IMG/VR virus record: IMGVR_UViG_3300042343_000347
DNA: 64,000 bases
From: a virus
Direction: 5' to 3' (one strand)
A program made the position numbers and the translations under genes. The notes beneath the pieces are model-generated. The model was not told the origin of the DNA, made no database searches, and saw only the letters and a list, made by a program, of their open reading frames with translations. Shown here piece by piece: positions 15,251 through 22,881 of the stretch. Every line of letters starts with the position of its first letter. Position 1 is the first letter of the stretch.

Positions 15251-16108
15251 TTATGTTCCCCATTCGTTCTTAAACAATGGTACTTGCAGTCTATCGCTGT
15301 ACCTCAAACCATTCTTCATAGCAAAGTTTGCTACTTGTCTATTATTAAGACTGTACACACTTTCTACACCGCCTACGGGCATGACATACACATTACCTGT
15401 AAAACCTTCACTGCGATAAAGTTCTGTGACTTCTAATACTTCGTCCATATCTTCTTGACTTGCGATAACAAACTTAAGATATACATGACCTGATTCTTGA
15501 TATTGTAAAACAACATCAGGTCTGATCGCACGTTCACGCTTTTCACCACTAACACTGAGTTTTGCGCTTACGCTAAACGTGATACTATCATAACTGCGAC
15601 TGCTGAACGGATCACCCTCAGCCCAATCATATAAAAAGTCTACAAGTTCAGGCTTTAGTTTCTGACTACCGTTAGTCTCAAACGTGATCTCTTTAAGATT
15701 TTTCATGAAGGGATGACTGAGAAGTTTAGGATACATCTTCTGCCATCCTAACAGTGGCTCACCGCCTGTGATGACTAAGTGTTCGTCTCGCCACTCTTTG
15801 AAGGGGAGGATATCTTTGATTGAATCAGCGATGCCATCAACTGAGACACGCGGACTAAGATGCTTGAACCTAGGATCCCAACTAGCATAACTGTCACATC
15901 CGGTACTAACCAGTGGTAAATCTCTATAAGATTTATATAACTTTGCATCGACAGCATGACGTTCATTAGTTTTTTCTCCTCTGGGCATACCGAAACCATC
16001 GCAAGTGAAGTTACAGCCGAACGTTCTTAGAAAGACTGAAGGCACGCCCATGTAGCGACCTTCGCCTTGAATACTGTAGAATAGTTCACTTATCTTGATT
16101 GAGTTCAT
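15251..16108 (-). CDS. queE: 7-carboxy-7-deazaguanine synthase (radical SAM)
   Basis: ELFYSIQGEG, FLRTFGCNFTC...CDS with long insertion, ITGGEPL, FETNG, SDRLQ. Confidence 0.9.
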   Translation of the reverse strand: MNSIKISELFYSIQGEGRYMGVPSVFLRTFGCNFTCDGFGMPRGEKTNERHAVDAKLYKSYRDLPLVSTGCDSYASWDPRFKHLSPRVSVDGIADSIKDILPFKEWRDEHLVITGGEPLLGWQKMYPKLLSHPFMKNLKEITFETNGSQKLKPELVDFLYDWAEGDPFSSRSYDSITFSVSAKLSVSGEKRERAIRPDVVLQYQESGHVYLKFVIASQEDMDEVLEVTELYRSEGFTGNVYVMPVGGVESVYSLNNRQVANFAMKNGLRYSDRLQVPLFKNEWGT

Positions 16109-16496
16109 TTAAATACCTTATTAATTCTTTATCTGTAGGTTTCACACTGTAGTTCTGTTTAAAGAATATCTCATAACTATCACTACCGTATTTACCAATA
16201 CCATAGAGTATATTAGCATTTATTTTGTCCCAAGTCAAGTAATCACGGCTCATACCACGCAACCTTTTTTCCCTGATATTATACATACCAAGAGGCTTGA
16301 TGATATCGATCACTTGTTCTGGTGTACTATTTAGGAGACTTCTTGGGTTTGGAAACTTTTTTAGGAACTTTGGAAGCACGTACTTTACTGGCTTTCTTCC
16401 CGTTTGGTTCAGCATGATCACTCCTACCATGTGTTCCCATTCGTTCTTTATCTGTTGCTGAACCATTAGATCGTCTCTTAGTGCTTTTACCTTCAC
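16086..16496 (-). CDS. HhH-GPD DNA glycosylase (MBD4-like)
   Basis: IMLNQT, LGMYNIR, LYGIGKYGSDSY helix-hairpin-helix, PTDKEL. Confidence 0.8.
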   Translation of the reverse strand: MKVKALRDDLMVQQQIKNEWEHMVGVIMLNQTGRKPVKYVLPKFLKKFPNPRSLLNSTPEQVIDIIKPLGMYNIREKRLRGMSRDYLTWDKINANILYGIGKYGSDSYEIFFKQNYSVKPTDKELIRYLNELNQDK

Positions 16497-16665
16497 TTTG
16501 CTTCTCCCTGTATCTCAACACGCCATCTACTATGCCATATTCAGTAGTCTCTGTGACCAATCGCCAACCGTCAAAAACTACTATTTTTTCAGTGGTTTCA
16601 CGCTCTAAAAATTGCTTGAATTCTGATAGGCTATTATACTTTAATTTTTTAGGTATATACATCAT
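16327..16665 (-). CDS. hypothetical protein; C-terminus overlaps glycosylase gene
   Basis: N-terminal half fills the gap 16497-16665; Lys-rich tail overlaps next ORF by ~170 nt. Confidence 0.5.
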   Translation of the reverse strand: MMYIPKKLKYNSLSEFKQFLERETTEKIVVFDGWRLVTETTEYGIVDGVLRYREKQSEGKSTKRRSNGSATDKERMGTHGRSDHAEPNGKKASKVRASKVPKKVSKPKKSPK

Positions 16666-16928
16666 TGAAACTTGAGTTTGTACCAATTCAGTTCAGCATC
16701 AGAATATAAGTATATCCTAGTTCTATGATTGTCAGTCAAAAAAGCCCAGGTATATTTTTGTTTAGGATTTAAAAATTTTAATTCTCTACCCGGGCCAAAT
16801 ACTTGCCAGCACCATTCACGTATCGTACAAAAATCATGACCATCTTTATGAGGGTGGACGAACTCTAAGCAGTACCCAAAGTTCGCACCACCGGCAAATC
16901 TACGATCTAATTTTTGTATGATTATCAA
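16662..16928 (-). CDS. hypothetical protein
   Basis: probable TTG start right after PRTase stop; REWCWQVFGP motif. Confidence 0.6.
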   Translation of the reverse strand: MIIIQKLDRRFAGGANFGYCLEFVHPHKDGHDFCTIREWCWQVFGPGRELKFLNPKQKYTWAFLTDNHRTRIYLYSDAELNWYKLKFQ

Positions 16929-16929
16929 A

Positions 16930-17454
16930 TTACCACCAGTCTTCCCAAGGGAACACACACCATTCGGGATTCTCGGCTTTGTTGATCGCCAGGCCAACAA
17001 AGTCTGTCTCAAATTCGCTTGCTTGATTTTCGATCAATACAGCAAACCTGACATTCTTATGCCAAACACTAGCCCATGCTGTTTGTTCTTTAGGTAAGCA
17101 ACCGCCTTGCCAATCGCTAACAATATTTTTAAATGTATTGCCAGTGTCATTGATGTCGTCAACAATCAAGATATTCTTGCGCATAGAAACATCCCAGCGA
17201 CTCTTATATGTCTCTTGCTCTTCAGATGGAACAGTGCCAAATGCGTCCTCTGCCATCCATAGATTAGACTCAGCAGGATCTAATGCATAGAAAGGAATGT
17301 TTAGGTAATGACTAAGCATCACGCCAGGAATCAATCCTCCCCTAGTCAAACCTACAATATAGTCAGGTCTGTAGTCGGCAGTATACATCTGACGCACGAT
17401 TTCTAGAACCCCGCCCTTGACGAATTCATCTGTGTAATACATTTGTTTATCCAT
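16930..17454 (-). CDS. type I purine phosphoribosyltransferase (xanthine-guanine PRT-like)
   Basis: IVGLTRGGLIP, PRPP loop ILIVDDINDTGNT, WCVFPWE C-terminus. Confidence 0.85.
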   Translation of the reverse strand: MDKQMYYTDEFVKGGVLEIVRQMYTADYRPDYIVGLTRGGLIPGVMLSHYLNIPFYALDPAESNLWMAEDAFGTVPSEEQETYKSRWDVSMRKNILIVDDINDTGNTFKNIVSDWQGGCLPKEQTAWASVWHKNVRFAVLIENQASEFETDFVGLAINKAENPEWCVFPWEDWW

Positions 17455-17456
17455 AA

Positions 17457-17648
17457 TTACCAATGCCTCATTACGTTTGCTATGATGAATAGACATGTTA
17501 TCACATGTAACACTACCCATGAAGTTTTTAGGAACAATGCGATACGGGCTTCACGCAAAGTAAGTACAGGGACTCTAGGGCGATCCTCGTCGGTCTCACC
17601 CATTAGATGCCCTGTTGCTCTAGCCCAAATTTTTACTAGACTGTTCAT
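17457..17648 (-). CDS. small membrane protein
   Basis: C-terminal hydrophobic helix. Confidence 0.6.
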   Translation of the reverse strand: MNSLVKIWARATGHLMGETDEDRPRVPVLTLREARIALFLKTSWVVLHVITCLFIIANVMRHW

Positions 17649-18094
17649 GCTTCGTAAATTGCGCTGTTTGCACCATGTTCGGCACATTCTACACGCACAC
17701 AATAACAACGATTGTTAGATTTCTCGCGAATTAAGTTATCAGCATAATTAAAAGCATGTTCAGCAAATTTTTCTGCGCCCACACCATTAAAATATGTAAG
17801 TTTTGCCAACCCCAATTCTTCTAAATGTTGAAAATCTGCAACGTGCGGGTCTGCTGTATCTAAACAAACCTTATGATCAAAACTGTCTTCTAACCATTTC
17901 TTTAAATCTTTAAGACCCCCGAAATCTACAGCCCAGTTTTTATCATCTAATGTCTCACATCCAAAAGTAAACTTGAATGATAAACTATAGCCATGCAATA
18001 AATGACAATGACTATGCCCTGCATTGGGCTGTCTAAAGACTGCCGATAAACCTATGTTGTGTCCGTATGTTTTTGTTGAATAGTACTTTGCCAT
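17645..18094 (-). CDS. queD: 6-carboxy-5,6,7,8-tetrahydropterin synthase
   Basis: CHLLHGY (CxxxHG), VDFGGLK, FDHK, AEKFA, terminal E...NSAIY. Confidence 0.9.
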   Translation of the reverse strand: MAKYYSTKTYGHNIGLSAVFRQPNAGHSHCHLLHGYSLSFKFTFGCETLDDKNWAVDFGGLKDLKKWLEDSFDHKVCLDTADPHVADFQHLEELGLAKLTYFNGVGAEKFAEHAFNYADNLIREKSNNRCYCVRVECAEHGANSAIYEA

Positions 18095-18126
18095 CTCTAG
18101 TCTCCTTTACTAATGAGCAAGTTTGA

Positions 18127-18167
18127 TGGCGGCAGAATTTATAAATCGGGATGACGCCAAGACCGAT
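18127..18167 (-). ncRNA. preQ1-I-like riboswitch candidate (H-type pseudoknot) in queD leader
   Basis: AUCGG-UCUUGGCGUCAUC-CCGAU-UUAUAAAUUCUGC-CGCCA: 5-bp P1, 13-nt loop starting U and ending CAUC, A-rich tail, loop UGGCG pairs with CGCCA. Confidence 0.55.
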
Positions 18168-18171
18168 GTGA

Positions 18172-18339
18172 TTATACGCTTTTTACTTCGTATTGTTCGC
18201 TAATTTTAGTAGTCAATGTTTCCCATAATGGCTCTAGTGCATTACGCGGATCCAACTCTACTTCTTGATCAGTGATACAAGATACATCATAATTGACGAT
18301 AACCTTATCACCTTTGTTATTCTCAAATGTTAACTTCAT
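18172..18339 (-). CDS. hypothetical protein (55 aa, not in ORF track)
   Basis: manual translation MKLTFENNKGDKV...YEVKSV; AGGAG RBS, ATGA overlap. Confidence 0.65.
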   Translation of the reverse strand: MKLTFENNKGDKVIVNYDVSCITDQEVELDPRNALEPLWETLTTKISEQYEVKSV

Positions 18340-18548
18340 ATCCATCTCCTAACTATCACTGTTCCATATCTGTACATATGTGTCTCACAGCCTATTCTGT
18401 CAGTAACACTGTGTACTAATTGTATCATCTTTGCGCTGTTTCCGCAAATGATTTCTAATGGGAATTCGCCCTGATTCATCAATATAAAGTTCTCTACCAT
18501 AGGTTCGACCTCACTATGTCTGACACCGTGTAGGTCTAACTGATTCAT
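18336..18548 (-). CDS. Smr-domain-like small protein
   Basis: LDLHGV...EIICGNS. Confidence 0.6.
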   Translation of the reverse strand: MNQLDLHGVRHSEVEPMVENFILMNQGEFPLEIICGNSAKMIQLVHSVTDRIGCETHMYRYGTVIVRRWI

Positions 18549-19021
18549 GGCTTATCAGAGTACCTTTTTTGATTCTCTGCTTCCCATACACGCTCACGCA
18601 AGTTAGTGCTACTGAAACTATGATCGCGGCTATTAAACACTAATTCAATATTACGCTTCTCGCAGATAGCACGACCAGTAAATTCACTTTGCATATACTC
18701 TACACCTAATATACGAACATCAAGGGGTAGTGTTAGCAAAATATCTTCAAGGTCTTTTTCACTATTATAAACTACGATTTCGTCAACGAATCTATTTGCA
18801 CTAAGTTGAATCTGTCTTTCTACCAGGCTTTGTATGGGAGCATTCTTTTGAGGTCTGTCCCAACTCGCATTGTTTTGTAAACCTGCGATTAGATAATCGC
18901 AATGATTCTTTGCTTCTGCAAGCATAGCAACATGACCTGCATGTAACAAATCGAATTGGCTGAACGTGATACCTATCTTCAACCCTTTATCTTTTAATTC
19001 TTTTATTTTATTGAATATCAT
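18545..19021 (-). CDS. cytidylyltransferase (glycerol-3-phosphate CT / TagD-like)
   Basis: FDLLHAGH (HxGH), ER..QL...VDE, RDHSFSST. Confidence 0.85.
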   Translation of the reverse strand: MIFNKIKELKDKGLKIGITFSQFDLLHAGHVAMLAEAKNHCDYLIAGLQNNASWDRPQKNAPIQSLVERQIQLSANRFVDEIVVYNSEKDLEDILLTLPLDVRILGVEYMQSEFTGRAICEKRNIELVFNSRDHSFSSTNLRERVWEAENQKRYSDKP

Positions 19022-19254
19022 CTTTTTAATTCACTCCAAAATTGTTTCTTATGTTGCTCTTCAAGCCAAACATCTTCATCAGTGAATGTAGGTTGTCTTT
19101 TGAGCATTTCCTCTAAAAGAAATTTGATCTCATAGAGTTCTTTTTTAGTCTGCCAAGATGTCCATCCGTCATTATAAGGGCTACAGATTTCTCCATGAGC
19201 CTTAATCAATTGCATTTTAATGCTATCTGGCTCTATTGGTTTCCTGTATCCCAT
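19018..19254 (-). CDS. hypothetical protein
   Basis: coupled ORF; SPYNDGWT motif. Confidence 0.65.
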   Translation of the reverse strand: MGYRKPIEPDSIKMQLIKAHGEICSPYNDGWTSWQTKKELYEIKFLLEEMLKRQPTFTDEDVWLEEQHKKQFWSELKR

Positions 19255-19420
19255 TTGCGACCTTATTAGTATCAATGATGATGTCCATTGCTTGACGTAG
19301 TAACTGTTCGATAGTCACAAGTTTCTGTTCAGTTTCCCAAACTTTCTTGTGCTGTAGTTCTAATCTAGCCTCTAATTCACATACTTTAGAGAATAGTTGA
19401 TCGTTAAAGTCTCCCATCAC
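19223..19420 (-). CDS. hypothetical coiled-coil protein
   Basis: 65 aa directly after folE. Confidence 0.55.
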   Translation of the reverse strand: MMGDFNDQLFSKVCELEARLELQHKKVWETEQKLVTIEQLLRQAMDIIIDTNKVANGIQETNRAR

Positions 19421-20097
19421 TTACAGCCCTTCATTGCGATATTCAAAAACTCAGCACGGGCAGCAGGATCGTTCTTGAATCCACCACCAAGACGGCTTGT
19501 GACTGTGCTACTACCTGTATCCTCTACACCACGACTCTTCACACAATAATGTTGTGCATCAATCATTACAGCAACATCTTCTGTGCCTAGGATGAATTGT
19601 AATGTGTGGAAGATTTGTTCTGTGAGGCGTTCTTGAATCTGTGGACGCTTGCTGAAGTATTCAACGATTCTGTTGATCTTGCTGAGTCCCAATACTTTAT
19701 CCTTAGGTACATATGCTACTGTAGCAAGACCATCGATGACAACAAAGTGATGTTCGCAGTTGCTTTGTACATTGACATTACGCTCAACGACCATCTCGTT
19801 ATACTTCATCTTGTTATCGACCGTAGTACACTTAGGGAACGAATCATAATCTAGTCCCCAGAAAATCTCATTGACATACATTTTAGCGACACGCTTGGGT
19901 GTATCGATCAAACTGTCATCGGTCAAGTCTAATCCTAAAGCCCTCATGATCTCAGCAAAGTTACCTTCGATGATATCAATCTGTTCTTTACGATCTAGAT
20001 TGCGCTTTTTGATTGGGGTTTCAACACCCATTTTGACTAGGTGTTCATGAACCTGTTTGCCAAGTTCTGGGTCTGTTTTTGTCTTATTGTATGACAT
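19417..20097 (-). CDS. folE: GTP cyclohydrolase I
   Basis: DTPKRVAKM, SNCEHHF, GLSKINR, PQIQERLT, HYCVKSRG. Confidence 0.95.
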   Translation of the reverse strand: MSYNKTKTDPELGKQVHEHLVKMGVETPIKKRNLDRKEQIDIIEGNFAEIMRALGLDLTDDSLIDTPKRVAKMYVNEIFWGLDYDSFPKCTTVDNKMKYNEMVVERNVNVQSNCEHHFVVIDGLATVAYVPKDKVLGLSKINRIVEYFSKRPQIQERLTEQIFHTLQFILGTEDVAVMIDAQHYCVKSRGVEDTGSSTVTSRLGGGFKNDPAARAEFLNIAMKGCK

Positions 20098-20105
20098 TTA
20101 GTTTC

Positions 20106-20882
20106 TCCTTCCTTACACGGATATGTTAAATTTTGCATTGATATGCGGTAGAACTATTTGTTCTGCGAACCCTTTAAACTGTTCTCTACTTGGATGAGTA
20201 GCCCTGTATCGAACTTCTAGATTACTATGATTTCTTAAATGCTCGGGCAAACATGCGAATCCAGAATTCAAACACCAGTCCCAACATGTTTTGACTGGTA
20301 AGAAATTACTCCAGTCTATCATATCGTAAAGATGTTTAACGTTTGGATGCTTCATCATAGATTCTTCAGGTAAACCTGCTTCATTAAATATAGACATGAA
20401 GTATTTTACGTTGACAGATTTAAGATACCACTGAGTCCTCACTATATGTTCTAATGCATATATGCAGGAACCTACAGGGTCATAGTAGTTTTTGATATAA
20501 GAGATTGTATAGTTATCTTCTTCCCAGGGACGCAGGGAAACCCAACAACCTTCATCGTTGTCTATGAAACGAAATGTGAATCTAGACTTAAATCTATCTG
20601 TATCACTGTGATAATTTTCTAGCCTATGAATGCTAGACCACATCACGCCTACTAATAGTTCTTGGGGATTAGATGATTTCAGAGCAGTCTCTACACCGTG
20701 AATGACGGATCGACTGATGTACCCATTACCTGCACCGTTAACGGCATAATTATATAAGGGTAGGTTTAAAGATTCGGCTACATAGTTTGGCCAAGCGATT
20801 CTGCCTTCAGTAGGAATACCCTCAGTAAAACTACAACCACTTACTATTAACTTTTCTAACATCGTCCTTCCTTACGCGGATA
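20106..20882. repeat. 18-bp direct repeat (17/18 identical) at 20106-20123 and 20865-20882 containing the RBS
   Basis: TCCTTCCTTAC(A/G)CGGATA twice, flanking ORF 20113-20862. Confidence 0.75.
20113..20862 (-). CDS. SGNH/GDSL-like hydrolase-fold protein (paralogue 1)
   Basis: GCSFT block I, NYAVNGAGN block II, C-terminal HP. Confidence 0.6.
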   Translation of the reverse strand: MLEKLIVSGCSFTEGIPTEGRIAWPNYVAESLNLPLYNYAVNGAGNGYISRSVIHGVETALKSSNPQELLVGVMWSSIHRLENYHSDTDRFKSRFTFRFIDNDEGCWVSLRPWEEDNYTISYIKNYYDPVGSCIYALEHIVRTQWYLKSVNVKYFMSIFNEAGLPEESMMKHPNVKHLYDMIDWSNFLPVKTCWDWCLNSGFACLPEHLRNHSNLEVRYRATHPSREQFKGFAEQIVLPHINAKFNISV

Positions 20883-20900
20883 AAATTTGTAAATCAACTC

Positions 20901-20927
20901 GCTACCGTTGTGTAGCATATGTATTTA
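20901..20927 (-). promoter_or_regulatory. TAAATA promoter-like motif followed by 5' hairpin
   Basis: TAAATA-CATAT-GCTAC ACAACG GTAGC. Confidence 0.55.
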
Positions 20928-20930
20928 TAT

Positions 20931-21674
20931 CTAACTGATATAACCCTTACTTTTTAAATGGGGCAATATCACCTTATCTACAAACATCTTACTAATAGCA
21001 GGCGTAGGATGCTGTGTTTCATCGAACTTCATACCTTCTCTTTTACCCCAATCATACATGTTCTTTATGGGTAGAACGTTACTATAATCTATCTGATCGC
21101 GCAGATATTTTACGTCTGTATGATTATTATATTTCAAATAATCATCACCGTCTAAACTGTCGTAGTTATATGTAGTGAAAAAATATTTGATATTGTGCAT
21201 TTTTAAGAACCATTGAATGCGCAAAATATTTTCTATAGTGTTTATGTACAGACCTATATCATCATAATAATGTTTATAATAAATCTGACTTAATTCATCA
21301 CTCCAGCCCGGATGCATCAGATAATTATTCTGTTCAGCACCTACGCTACACGGTTGGCTGTAATACCAGTTGGTTGATTTGTGCGGATCCCACTGATAAT
21401 AATCTACAGGTTCATGCGTCAGATATACAGACTTTCTAGATACTCCCGACCACATCACTCCCACTAGTAGATTTTCAGGTTTGTACTTTTGCACAGTCAA
21501 GCATTGATTGACTCTGAAGATCACACGTTTAGAAATAATGTCGTTACCTGTGCTACCTGCACCGTCAAAAAAAGCCTGCATGTCTAATGCATCACGCAAG
21601 AATACAGGCCAGTTATCGCCGGGTACTTGTGTGAAACTGCAACCTGCTGATATCAATATTCTAGGATTTGCCAT
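20931..21674 (-). CDS. SGNH/GDSL-like hydrolase-fold protein (paralogue 2)
   Basis: [19 protein letters not shown] shared with 20113 ORF, QHP. Confidence 0.6.
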
Positions 21675-22689
21675 TTACAAAAACACCATTATACTGTTGC
21701 GTTACGCGGACAAAAGTCGTACACTTGCTAAGATTTTTTAATGTATGCGCACCTACATACGTACATGTGCTACGGATACCTCCCAGTAAATCTAGTACTG
21801 TGTTATTAACAGGACCACGATATGGGACTACGACCGTTCGCCCTTCGCTACTACGATAACTTGCTATACCGCCGTTGTGCTTGTTCATAGCAGTATCAGA
21901 ACTCATTCCATAGAATGTAATTTTTCCATCTTCTACGGTGCCGCCACCTTCGTCATGTCCGGCTAACATACCACCAAGCATGACGAAATCTGCCCCTGCG
22001 CCAAATGCTTTAGCCACATCGCCTGGGCAAGTACACCCGCCATCAGCAATGATATGTCCCCCAAGCCCATGCGCCGCATCGCTACACTCAATGATCGCAC
22101 TAAGTTGCGGGTAGCCAACCCCAGTTTGTATCCTAGTTGTACATACCGATCCTGGCCCGATTCCGACTTTAACAATATCTGCTCCTCGTAGTATCAATTC
22201 TTGTGTCATATCTGCGGTAACAACGTTACCTGCAATGATTGTACAATGCGGAAATGCTTCGCGCACTTCTTCTACATAATCACCGAAATGATCGCTGTAT
22301 CCATTGGCAACATCTATGCAGATAAAATGAATCTCAGGATAACTATTGATGATACGGCTTAGTCTTTGAAAGTCTTTCTCATTAGTACCTGTGCTTACTG
22401 CTAGATGATTACCACCGATCTTGCCGATCGTATCAGAAAACTGATCTTCAGTATATGACTTAACAAGGCATGTGAACATACGATGTTCATATAATGCTTC
22501 AGCCATTCCTAGAGTACCTACACCATCCATGTTAGCGGCCATGACTGGAACACCTGTCCATTCAAAACCGCTATGCTTGAACTTGTAAGTACGATTCAAA
22601 TCGACTTCTTTACGACTAGATAGTGTGCTACGCTTGGGGCGTATCAATACATCCTTGAAGTCTAACTTGATATCTTCTTCGATACGCAT
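21661..22689 (-). CDS. guaC: GMP reductase
   Basis: [64 protein letters not shown]. Confidence 0.95.
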
Positions 22690-22692
22690 TTA

Positions 22693-22881
22693 TTAAGCCT
22701 TTGCTTCCTTACGTGCGTTCTTAGTAGCAGTGATTTCGTTACGGCGTGCCTTTACAGCCTTAGCAAGTTCACCAAGGGCCTTACGTGCGCGGGTACCGGC
22801 AGCGTTATTGCCCTTCTCAAACTTCTCATGTTCAGCAAGATATGCTTCCAAATGTGTGTTAATATCGTTATGTGCGCTCAT
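22693..22881 (-). CDS. histone H1-like Hc1-domain small basic protein
   Basis: FEKGNNAAGTRARKALGEL motif. Confidence 0.7.
   Translation of the reverse strand: MSAHNDINTHLEAYLAEHEKFEKGNNAAGTRARKALGELAKAVKARRNEITATKNARKEAKA

Follow-up and report, generated by a model that had tools for sequence, protein, structure and literature searches.

The 77-nt leader of a phage queD gene contains a small H-type pseudoknot that competes with a helix over the queD start codon. We propose that this leader controls translation in cis as an RNA switch from a new family specific to phages, and that it most likely works as a riboswitch that binds a metabolite; we put the probability of this reading at roughly 0.6. 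The gene lies in a 64,000-nt stretch of viral DNA (IMG/VR record IMGVR_UViG_3300042343_000347), the whole of which is referred to here as the window. Both helices of the pseudoknot covary among related phages, the knot and the start-codon helix are mutually exclusive, and the motif is linked exclusively to queD and restricted to phages. Judged from comparative sequence data, it is a real, strongly conserved and phage-specific RNA switch candidate from a family outside Rfam. More tentatively, we suggest that it may represent a new phage-only riboswitch class, in which a scaffold of the class I preQ1 (preQ1-I) type with a rebuilt binding pocket recognises a ligand other than preQ1 and activates queD translation.

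Phage-borne riboswitches that serve the phages' own pathways are, to our knowledge, rare. Our literature searches found no description of a queD-leader pseudoknot or of a riboswitch for 7-deazaguanine DNA modification, and riboswitches go unmentioned in a 2023 survey of the 7-deazaguanine pathways of phages. If the proposal is correct, a phage pathway for 7-deazapurine DNA modification or nucleotides would have in this leader the first RNA sensor of its own, and OFF logic would prove convertible to ON on the smallest riboswitch scaffold known, perhaps with a new ligand. The positions of its parts and of the surrounding genes are given in Table 1.

Table 1. Parts of the queD leader and associated genes in the window
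Feature	Sequence	Position	Strand	Remarks
P1 5' strand	AUCGG	18163..18167	minus	covariation
L1	UCU	18160..18162	minus	first base varies; C invariant, U nearly so
P2 5' strand	UGGCG	18155..18159	minus	within P1 loop; covariation
L2	UCAUC	18150..18154	minus	closes the loop; last C (18150) invariant
P1 3' strand	CCGAU	18145..18149	minus	covariation
L3 (tail)	UUAUAAAUUCUGC	18132..18144	minus	
P2 3' strand	CGCCA	18127..18131	minus	directly after CUGC; covariation
Sequestor 5' strand	GCCAUC	18125..18130	minus	overlaps four of the five P2 3' bases
Conserved block of window-type platform	CAAACUUGCU	18116..18125	minus	nearly invariant in 33 leaders
Shine-Dalgarno sequence	GGAG	18102..18105	minus	inside conserved block AAAGGAGACUAGAG
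Sequestor 3' strand	GAUGGC	18090..18095	minus	contains AUG (18094-18092)
queD, controlled gene		17645..18094	minus	QueD-like 6-carboxytetrahydropterin synthase (PTPS family), 149 aa
GMP reductase		21661-22689	minus	E 1.5e-141 to human GMPR2
DUF6071 paralogue, second		20931-21674	minus	E 1.8e-9; adjacent to the first
DUF6071 paralogue, first		20113-20862	minus	E 1.3e-4 (below Pfam cut-off); beside folE
FolE		19417-20097	minus	
Purine PRTase		16930-17520	minus	
HhH-GPD glycosylase-like protein		16086-16496	minus	
QueE		15251-16108	minus	

A conserved pseudoknot precedes phage queD

The leader (minus strand, 18171-18095) fills the gap between the stop codon of a 57-aa ORF (18172) and the queD ATG (18094). 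A direct check of the window found its sequence, and its place before a phage queD, exactly as quoted in an earlier sequence-only reading of this DNA. The QueD protein matches Pfam PF01242 (E 1.6e-14) and the QueD-like PHROG (E 1.2e-39), and has the motif CxxxHGY instead of CxxxHGH. Folded alone, the leader has an energy no better than that of its shuffles (z = 0.10). A single sequence such as this proves nothing by itself, and the test therefore had to come from relatives.

An IMG/VR search with the QueD protein led to at least 594 loci, of which 80, with 79-85% identity, were examined. The motif precedes queD in 77 of these 80 QueD-anchored viral loci (the exceptions are L050, L052 and L060), and three loci of the set are cut by the locus end. 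In a pattern search for more viral contigs, 79 of the first 100 were true matches to our covariance model R1. Altogether, 157 motif-bearing loci were collected, with 123 distinct motif sequences. The alignment used for covariation (A3) holds 89 distinct sequences and was cut 5 nt after CUGC, which solves the problem that MAFFT and model-based alignments place a gap after CUGC and so break the register of P2.

Within these 89 sequences, 89.6% of the P1 and P2 cells are paired (65.6% when shuffled), 215 cells are changed on both sides (82 in shuffles), and the covariation score is 0.577 (0.172 in shuffles); for each of the three measures, none of 500 shuffles scored as high, and slid registers reached a covariation score of at most 0.156. 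Double changes are found in eight of the ten pairs, the other two being the G-C pairs at the top of P1, which are invariant throughout. The three outer pairs of P1 covary, as in columns 6-32 (CG 55, AU 27, UA 7), and all five pairs of P2 are changed on both sides, as in columns 23-48 (UA 27, GC 26, AU 8, CG 8). Furthermore, the QueD-anchored set, to which no P2 filter was applied, has 217 of 240 P2 cells paired. The 5-bp P1 and the 5-bp loop-tail helix (UGGCG/CGCCA) named in the sequence-only reading are thus borne out. The covariation alignment of queD leaders from related phages that it had put forward as a check has now been run; it supports both helices and, with the 77/80 loci, a conserved H-type pseudoknot in the phage queD leader.

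Read 5' to 3', the motif begins with P1 (NNNGG/CCNNN) and continues with an L1 of N-C-U plus 0-7 additional, variable bases, a P2 5' strand of 4-7 nt, UCA[U/A/C]C, the P1 3' strand, an L3 with the consensus [U/A]UA[U/C]AAA[C/U]UCUGC, and the P2 3' strand. Thirteen columns of the alignment are invariant and four nearly so, mostly in loops, and some nine invariant bases of L1, L2 and L3 are placed around the P1-P2 junction. Among the 123 unique motifs, the first base of L1 is A in 49, U in 45 and C in 29, and C10 is invariant; L3 is 13 nt long in 115 and 9 nt in 8, with its A, A, A, U, C, G and C invariant or nearly so. All 89 aligned sequences have C in the position that adjoins the P1 3' strand on its 5' side, and the base in front of this specificity-like C is U in 80, A in 22 and C in 21 of the 123. 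The loop opening with U and the A-rich tail of the earlier description survive in part: the window's loop does open with U, but relatives have U, A or C there, and the tail is partly A-rich but ends in an invariant UCUGC.

We propose, from the sequences, that P2 may extend beyond a U.C mismatch through the pairs C18153-G18133 and A18152-U18134. The first is C-G in 89/89 sequences, and the second, paired in every one of them, is A-U in 86 and G-C in 3; the three G-C cases form a single clade, so that their support for the extension is suggestive only. Such an extension would leave an L2 of 2 nt, [U/A/C]C (UC in the window).

P1 of the window begins 4 nt after the UAA stop of the 57-aa ORF, and translation of this ORF would melt P1. 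An H-type pseudoknot in that place could be a recoding signal that stimulates read-through or frameshifting at the stop. We regard this as hardly credible, since the ORF is present in only 4 of the 157 motif-bearing loci, a conserved upstream frame is absent, and the motif is linked to the downstream start codon rather than to anything upstream. Moreover, the motif begins the transcript in many other loci. In 24 of the 123 unique leaders a strong sigma-70-type promoter lies ahead of P1, with 5-20 nt (mode 7) between the end of its -10 box and P1, which puts the motif at the start of the transcript there, and most relatives have a promoter rather than an ORF in front of it. In the window itself, a perfect TATAAT (18171-18176, minus) overlaps the stop of the 57-aa ORF, 3 nt before P1. 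A consensus promoter scan reported no -35 box for it, and a transcription start from this element would fall within P1.

P2 and a start-codon sequestor exclude each other

The P2 3' strand and the bases that follow it have a conserved alternative partner, the start-codon region. Because four of the five P2 3' bases of the window are common to both helices, P2 and the sequestor are mutually exclusive. Of 115 leaders, 83% can form at least six contiguous pairs including the AUG; with the 5' segment shuffled, the share is 15% (maximum 24%). Compensating changes occur across platform types, with CAUC/GAUG and CAUUG/CAAUG, CCCAUAA/UUAUGGG where the second codon is Gly, and AGUCAUC/GAUGACU where it is Thr. 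Sequestors other than that of the window include GCCAUUAU/AUAAUGGC and UGCCAUUGUU/AACAAUGGCA, as well as GCCCAUAA/UUAUGGGU with a Gly and AAGUCAUC/GAUGACUU with a Thr second codon.

RNAalifold, applied to the 33 full leaders of the window's type, predicts exactly P1 plus the sequestor helix. The AUG of the window is 98% paired in the unconstrained ensemble (P(unpaired) 0.02), and the median P(unpaired) of the AUG across 115 leaders is 0.07. With the P2 strands withheld from pairing, the Shine-Dalgarno sequence of the window becomes 96% unpaired, a rise that is partly built into the calculation by the constraint. Exclusion is partial in one further platform type, whose Shine-Dalgarno sequence is covered by a hairpin, (C/U)CUAUG...CAUAGG, that shares only 2 nt with P2.

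The sequence-only reading had placed the platform elsewhere, in a pairing of GGUCUU with GAGACU over the Shine-Dalgarno sequence. This pairing is complete in only 7 of the 33 window-type leaders, its changes are uncompensated, and we have abandoned it. In a sister group, the blocks CAAACUUGCU (18116-18125) and AAAGGAGACUAGAG (18095-18108) change together to CAAACUUACU and GGAGGCAAGAG (alignment A4). We found no consistent pairing between these two co-changing blocks, nor a consistent helix between CAAACUUGCU and GGAGACUAGAG.

Several other kinds of control were considered and rejected. An intrinsic terminator was ruled out, there being no terminator-like site on the minus strand. Reading TGCTATAAT in the type-b hairpin together with the TATAAT (18176-18171) as a promoter would leave the covariation of P2 inexplicable at the DNA level. 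A T4-type late promoter in the TATAAAT of L3 was also discarded: the window has 4 copies of TATAAATA where 7.3 are expected, which is no enrichment, and L3 is variable, TACAAAC being one of its other forms.

We are now able to propose a mechanism. The pseudoknot, with its P1 of 5 bp and its P2 of 4-7 bp plus the two suggested pairs, would act as the sensor. Without ligand the sequestor hairpin would form, burying the AUG and leaving queD untranslated; a ligand-stabilised knot would keep the shared strand in P2, free the AUG and the Shine-Dalgarno sequence, and turn translation on. We infer a small molecule, rather than a protein, as the stabiliser of the knot. The ON direction follows from the four shared bases, since a ligand-stabilised knot should free the start site; this is thermodynamic reasoning, and co-transcriptional folding could alter the outcome. 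The leader combines two general marks of a riboswitch, a conserved 5' UTR structure and mutually exclusive pairings in the platform.

A folding device that needs no ligand would use the same two helices. The knot would form first during transcription and permit a brief period of translation until the stabler sequestor took over or, in an alternative form, the leader would respond to temperature, Mg2+ or upstream translation. The energies in the window are compatible with this, the sequestor duplex (-8.2 kcal/mol) being somewhat stronger than P2 (-6.6), as is the ORF that ends just before P1. Even taking both forms together, we consider such a device very unlikely, because a purely kinetic or thermal mechanism needs no such number of invariant unpaired bases, and because it is a promoter that stands before the motif in most relatives.

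The motif accompanies queD and is confined to phages

Model R1 finds a single copy in the window (60.5 bits; next match 8.8 bits) and five large relatives have one apiece (55-62 bits; next match 15 bits). A QueD homologue, 35-90% identical to that of the window, lies downstream of 155 of the 173 regex matches, the remainder being either truncated loci or bacterial contigs matched by chance in GC-rich sequence. Apart from queD, the neighbours of the motif vary: of 157 loci, 32 have QueE downstream, 40 have FolE upstream and 21 have a PRTase nearby, and in two near-complete genomes queD and its leader are 50-65 kb away from folE and queE.

A protein-binding site, recognised by QueD itself or by a phage translational regulator as in the T4 gene 32 mRNA leader pseudoknot, has to be weighed at this point. 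Conserved loop bases and a pseudoknot would suit a protein equally well, and phages of comparable size employ translational repressors. Nonetheless, the motif travels with queD alone while its neighbours vary, and occurs once per genome, so any protein partner must be QueD or a conserved host factor. Furthermore, invariant bases packed closely at a junction, among them a C as in preQ1-I, are typical of small-molecule pockets. We therefore judge a protein site to be distinctly unlikely and retain the metabolite-binding switch as the preferred reading.

A restrictive pattern gave 94 matches in 185,579 prokaryote genomes, approximately the number estimated for chance. Five of these are real motifs, all on MAG contigs, and the two that were checked have phage-like neighbours. 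Searches of 50,697 cultured phage records by blastn, using the locus and two motif variants, yielded nothing beyond noise and matches to QueD coding sequence. Among cultured phages the closest QueD, 55% identical, belongs to Synechococcus phage BUCT-ZZ01, where the gene overlaps the upstream gene and has no leader. The operon of this cultured T4-like cyanophage (locus L299; ON615601.1, 64514-76957) encodes QueE, a xanthine-guanine PRTase, a hypothetical protein, QueD and FolE in overlapping genes, and the phage could serve as a strain without the motif in comparisons of the pathway.

One related locus carries a degenerate second motif (L203:5-54, plus strand; 28.6 bits), with CCUGG for CCCGG and CUUCGC for CUCUGC. 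It precedes a gene for a 309-aa class I methyltransferase-like protein, about 1 kb upstream of the intact copy (999-1050).

Relation to preQ1-I and other riboswitches

The queD leader resembles the preQ1-I riboswitches in being a small H-type pseudoknot that leads a queuosine-pathway gene, with control at the level of translation. Its P1 has 5 bp and is closed by G-C pairs, P2 joins the P1 loop to the 3' tail, L3 starts A-rich, and the P1 3' strand has a C directly on its 5' side, following U or A (here also C). Examples of types I-III of the class come from B. subtilis queC, T. tengcongensis, C. antarcticum and E. coli. All preQ1 switches known to us turn genes off, and the wiring of the queD leader implies the opposite, ON. 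Unlike in preQ1-I, its P2 3' strand is without a Shine-Dalgarno sequence and competes with a start-codon sequestor, which gives the ON logic. P2 comprises 4-7 bp plus the proposed 2-bp extension, rather than about 4, and the earlier reading was right to call it extended. L3 has 13 nt (10 nt in the refined model, ending UC) and ends in the invariant UCUGC, and the motif is confined to phage contigs, in genomes without QueC.

No family of Rfam 15 matches the window or 14 diverse relatives (E<=1 in the 14 loci). The Infernal search with the Rfam PreQ1 model, suggested in the sequence-only reading, came out negative: RF00522 has no match at E<=10 in window positions 17950-18350 and none at gathering level (39 bits) in the whole window. 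In the genomes of the five relatives it gives weak matches of at most 16.5 bits, none of them at the motif (E<=10). The motif itself scores below about 10 bits with the PreQ1 model.

In all class I types, a conserved L1 uridine, U6, reads N9-H of preQ1, and an L3 adenine beside P2, A30, reads N3/N2; ahead of the specificity cytosine, which adjoins the P1 3' strand on its 5' side, type I has U and types II/III have A (PMC11625349). Of the class I pocket features, the queD leaders keep the specificity C, which is a predicted ligand contact, and the G-C floor. In place of U6 they have U, A or C as the first base of L1, and the invariant C and nearly invariant U that follow could substitute for it. 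In place of A30 they have an invariant C beside P2, and their three conserved adenines lie mid-L3. The class I match that had been claimed for this leader consequently stands as regards the order of the parts and the longer P2; membership of RF00522 and the equivalents of U6 and A30 are lost.

The leader could still be a divergent true preQ1-I member that senses host preQ1 (or preQ0) and differs only in its longer P2 and tail. The U, A or C before the invariant C recalls the signatures of type I (UC) and of types II/III (AC) (PMC11625349). The order of parts, the G-C, G-C end of P1, the A-rich start of the tail and the queuosine-pathway gene downstream are also as expected of such a member. 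We consider it unlikely nevertheless: the window motif and the five relatives lack an RF00522 match at E<=10 (gathering 39 bits), the pocket has U, A or C for U6 and C for A30, the leader is wired ON where known preQ1 switches are OFF, and the phages cannot make preQ1, with QueC in 0/5 genomes.

The proposed logic of the queD switch is similar to that of the V. vulnificus add adenine riboswitch, in which a ligand-stabilised aptamer captures the sequestor strand and turns translation on. The add aptamer, however, is a three-way junction with another ligand, whereas the queD leader shares a strand of its pseudoknot and mainly buries the AUG, not the Shine-Dalgarno sequence. SAM-II, SAM-V, preQ1-II/III, guanidine-III and fluoride riboswitches are likewise minimal pseudoknot aptamers with a 3' strand linked to the ribosome-binding site; the queD leader differs from them in its lack of an Rfam match, its conserved bases and its gene association.

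Pathway context and candidate ligands

A QueC-less deazapurine gene set spans 15251-22689 (minus) of the window, which also encodes a cytidylyltransferase-like protein and glycosyltransferase-like proteins with weak matches only. FolE and QueE are present in all five large relatives and the PRTase in three. Neither QueC nor a Pfam-detectable TGT was found in these five, the TGT Pfam model being too distant from DpdA3-type transglycosylases for the missing match to prove that DpdA3 is absent. The set FolE, QueD and QueE stops at CDG, and the absence of QueC from all five genomes supports the earlier statement that the phage alone cannot make preQ1. Similar gene sets are found in QueC-less dDG phages (PMC10516641) and in the CDG-PRPP route of tubercidin biosynthesis (PMC6112128), and that of the window resembles both.

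The ligand, like the ON direction, we can only infer. In class I preQ1 riboswitches, the position of the invariant C is the one that pairs with the guanine-like side of the ligand, and this suggests a ligand with a guanine-type face. A ligand that lacks a free N9-H would be in keeping with the loss of the equivalent of U6, the N9-H reader of preQ1-I, although this is speculation. Biosynthetic genes seldom carry ON switches, and it must be conceded that no ligand makes obvious sense for an ON switch on queD. The ON logic favours a precursor or signal over the end product, and guanine/GTP or the FolE product dihydroneopterin triphosphate seem the more sensible choices; CDG, 7-deazaguanine and host preQ0/preQ1 may also be among the candidates. 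The ligand would point to the control point of the QueC-less deazapurine pathway. The motif is abundant in lake and marine viromes, and this abundance, its small size (~45 nt) and its clear covariation make it easy to test; it would also supply a compact ON switch for synthetic biology.

Finally, two proteins encoded near folE deserve mention. The DUF6071 paralogues are left as candidates for a DpdA replacement, and the second of them (20931-21674) has no match in the PDB or in cultured phage records. Further upstream, a 62-aa protein (22693-22881, minus) resembles the chlamydial histone H1-like Hc1 (PF07432, E 2.1e-14), which is unusual for a phage and recurs upstream of queD in 11 related loci.
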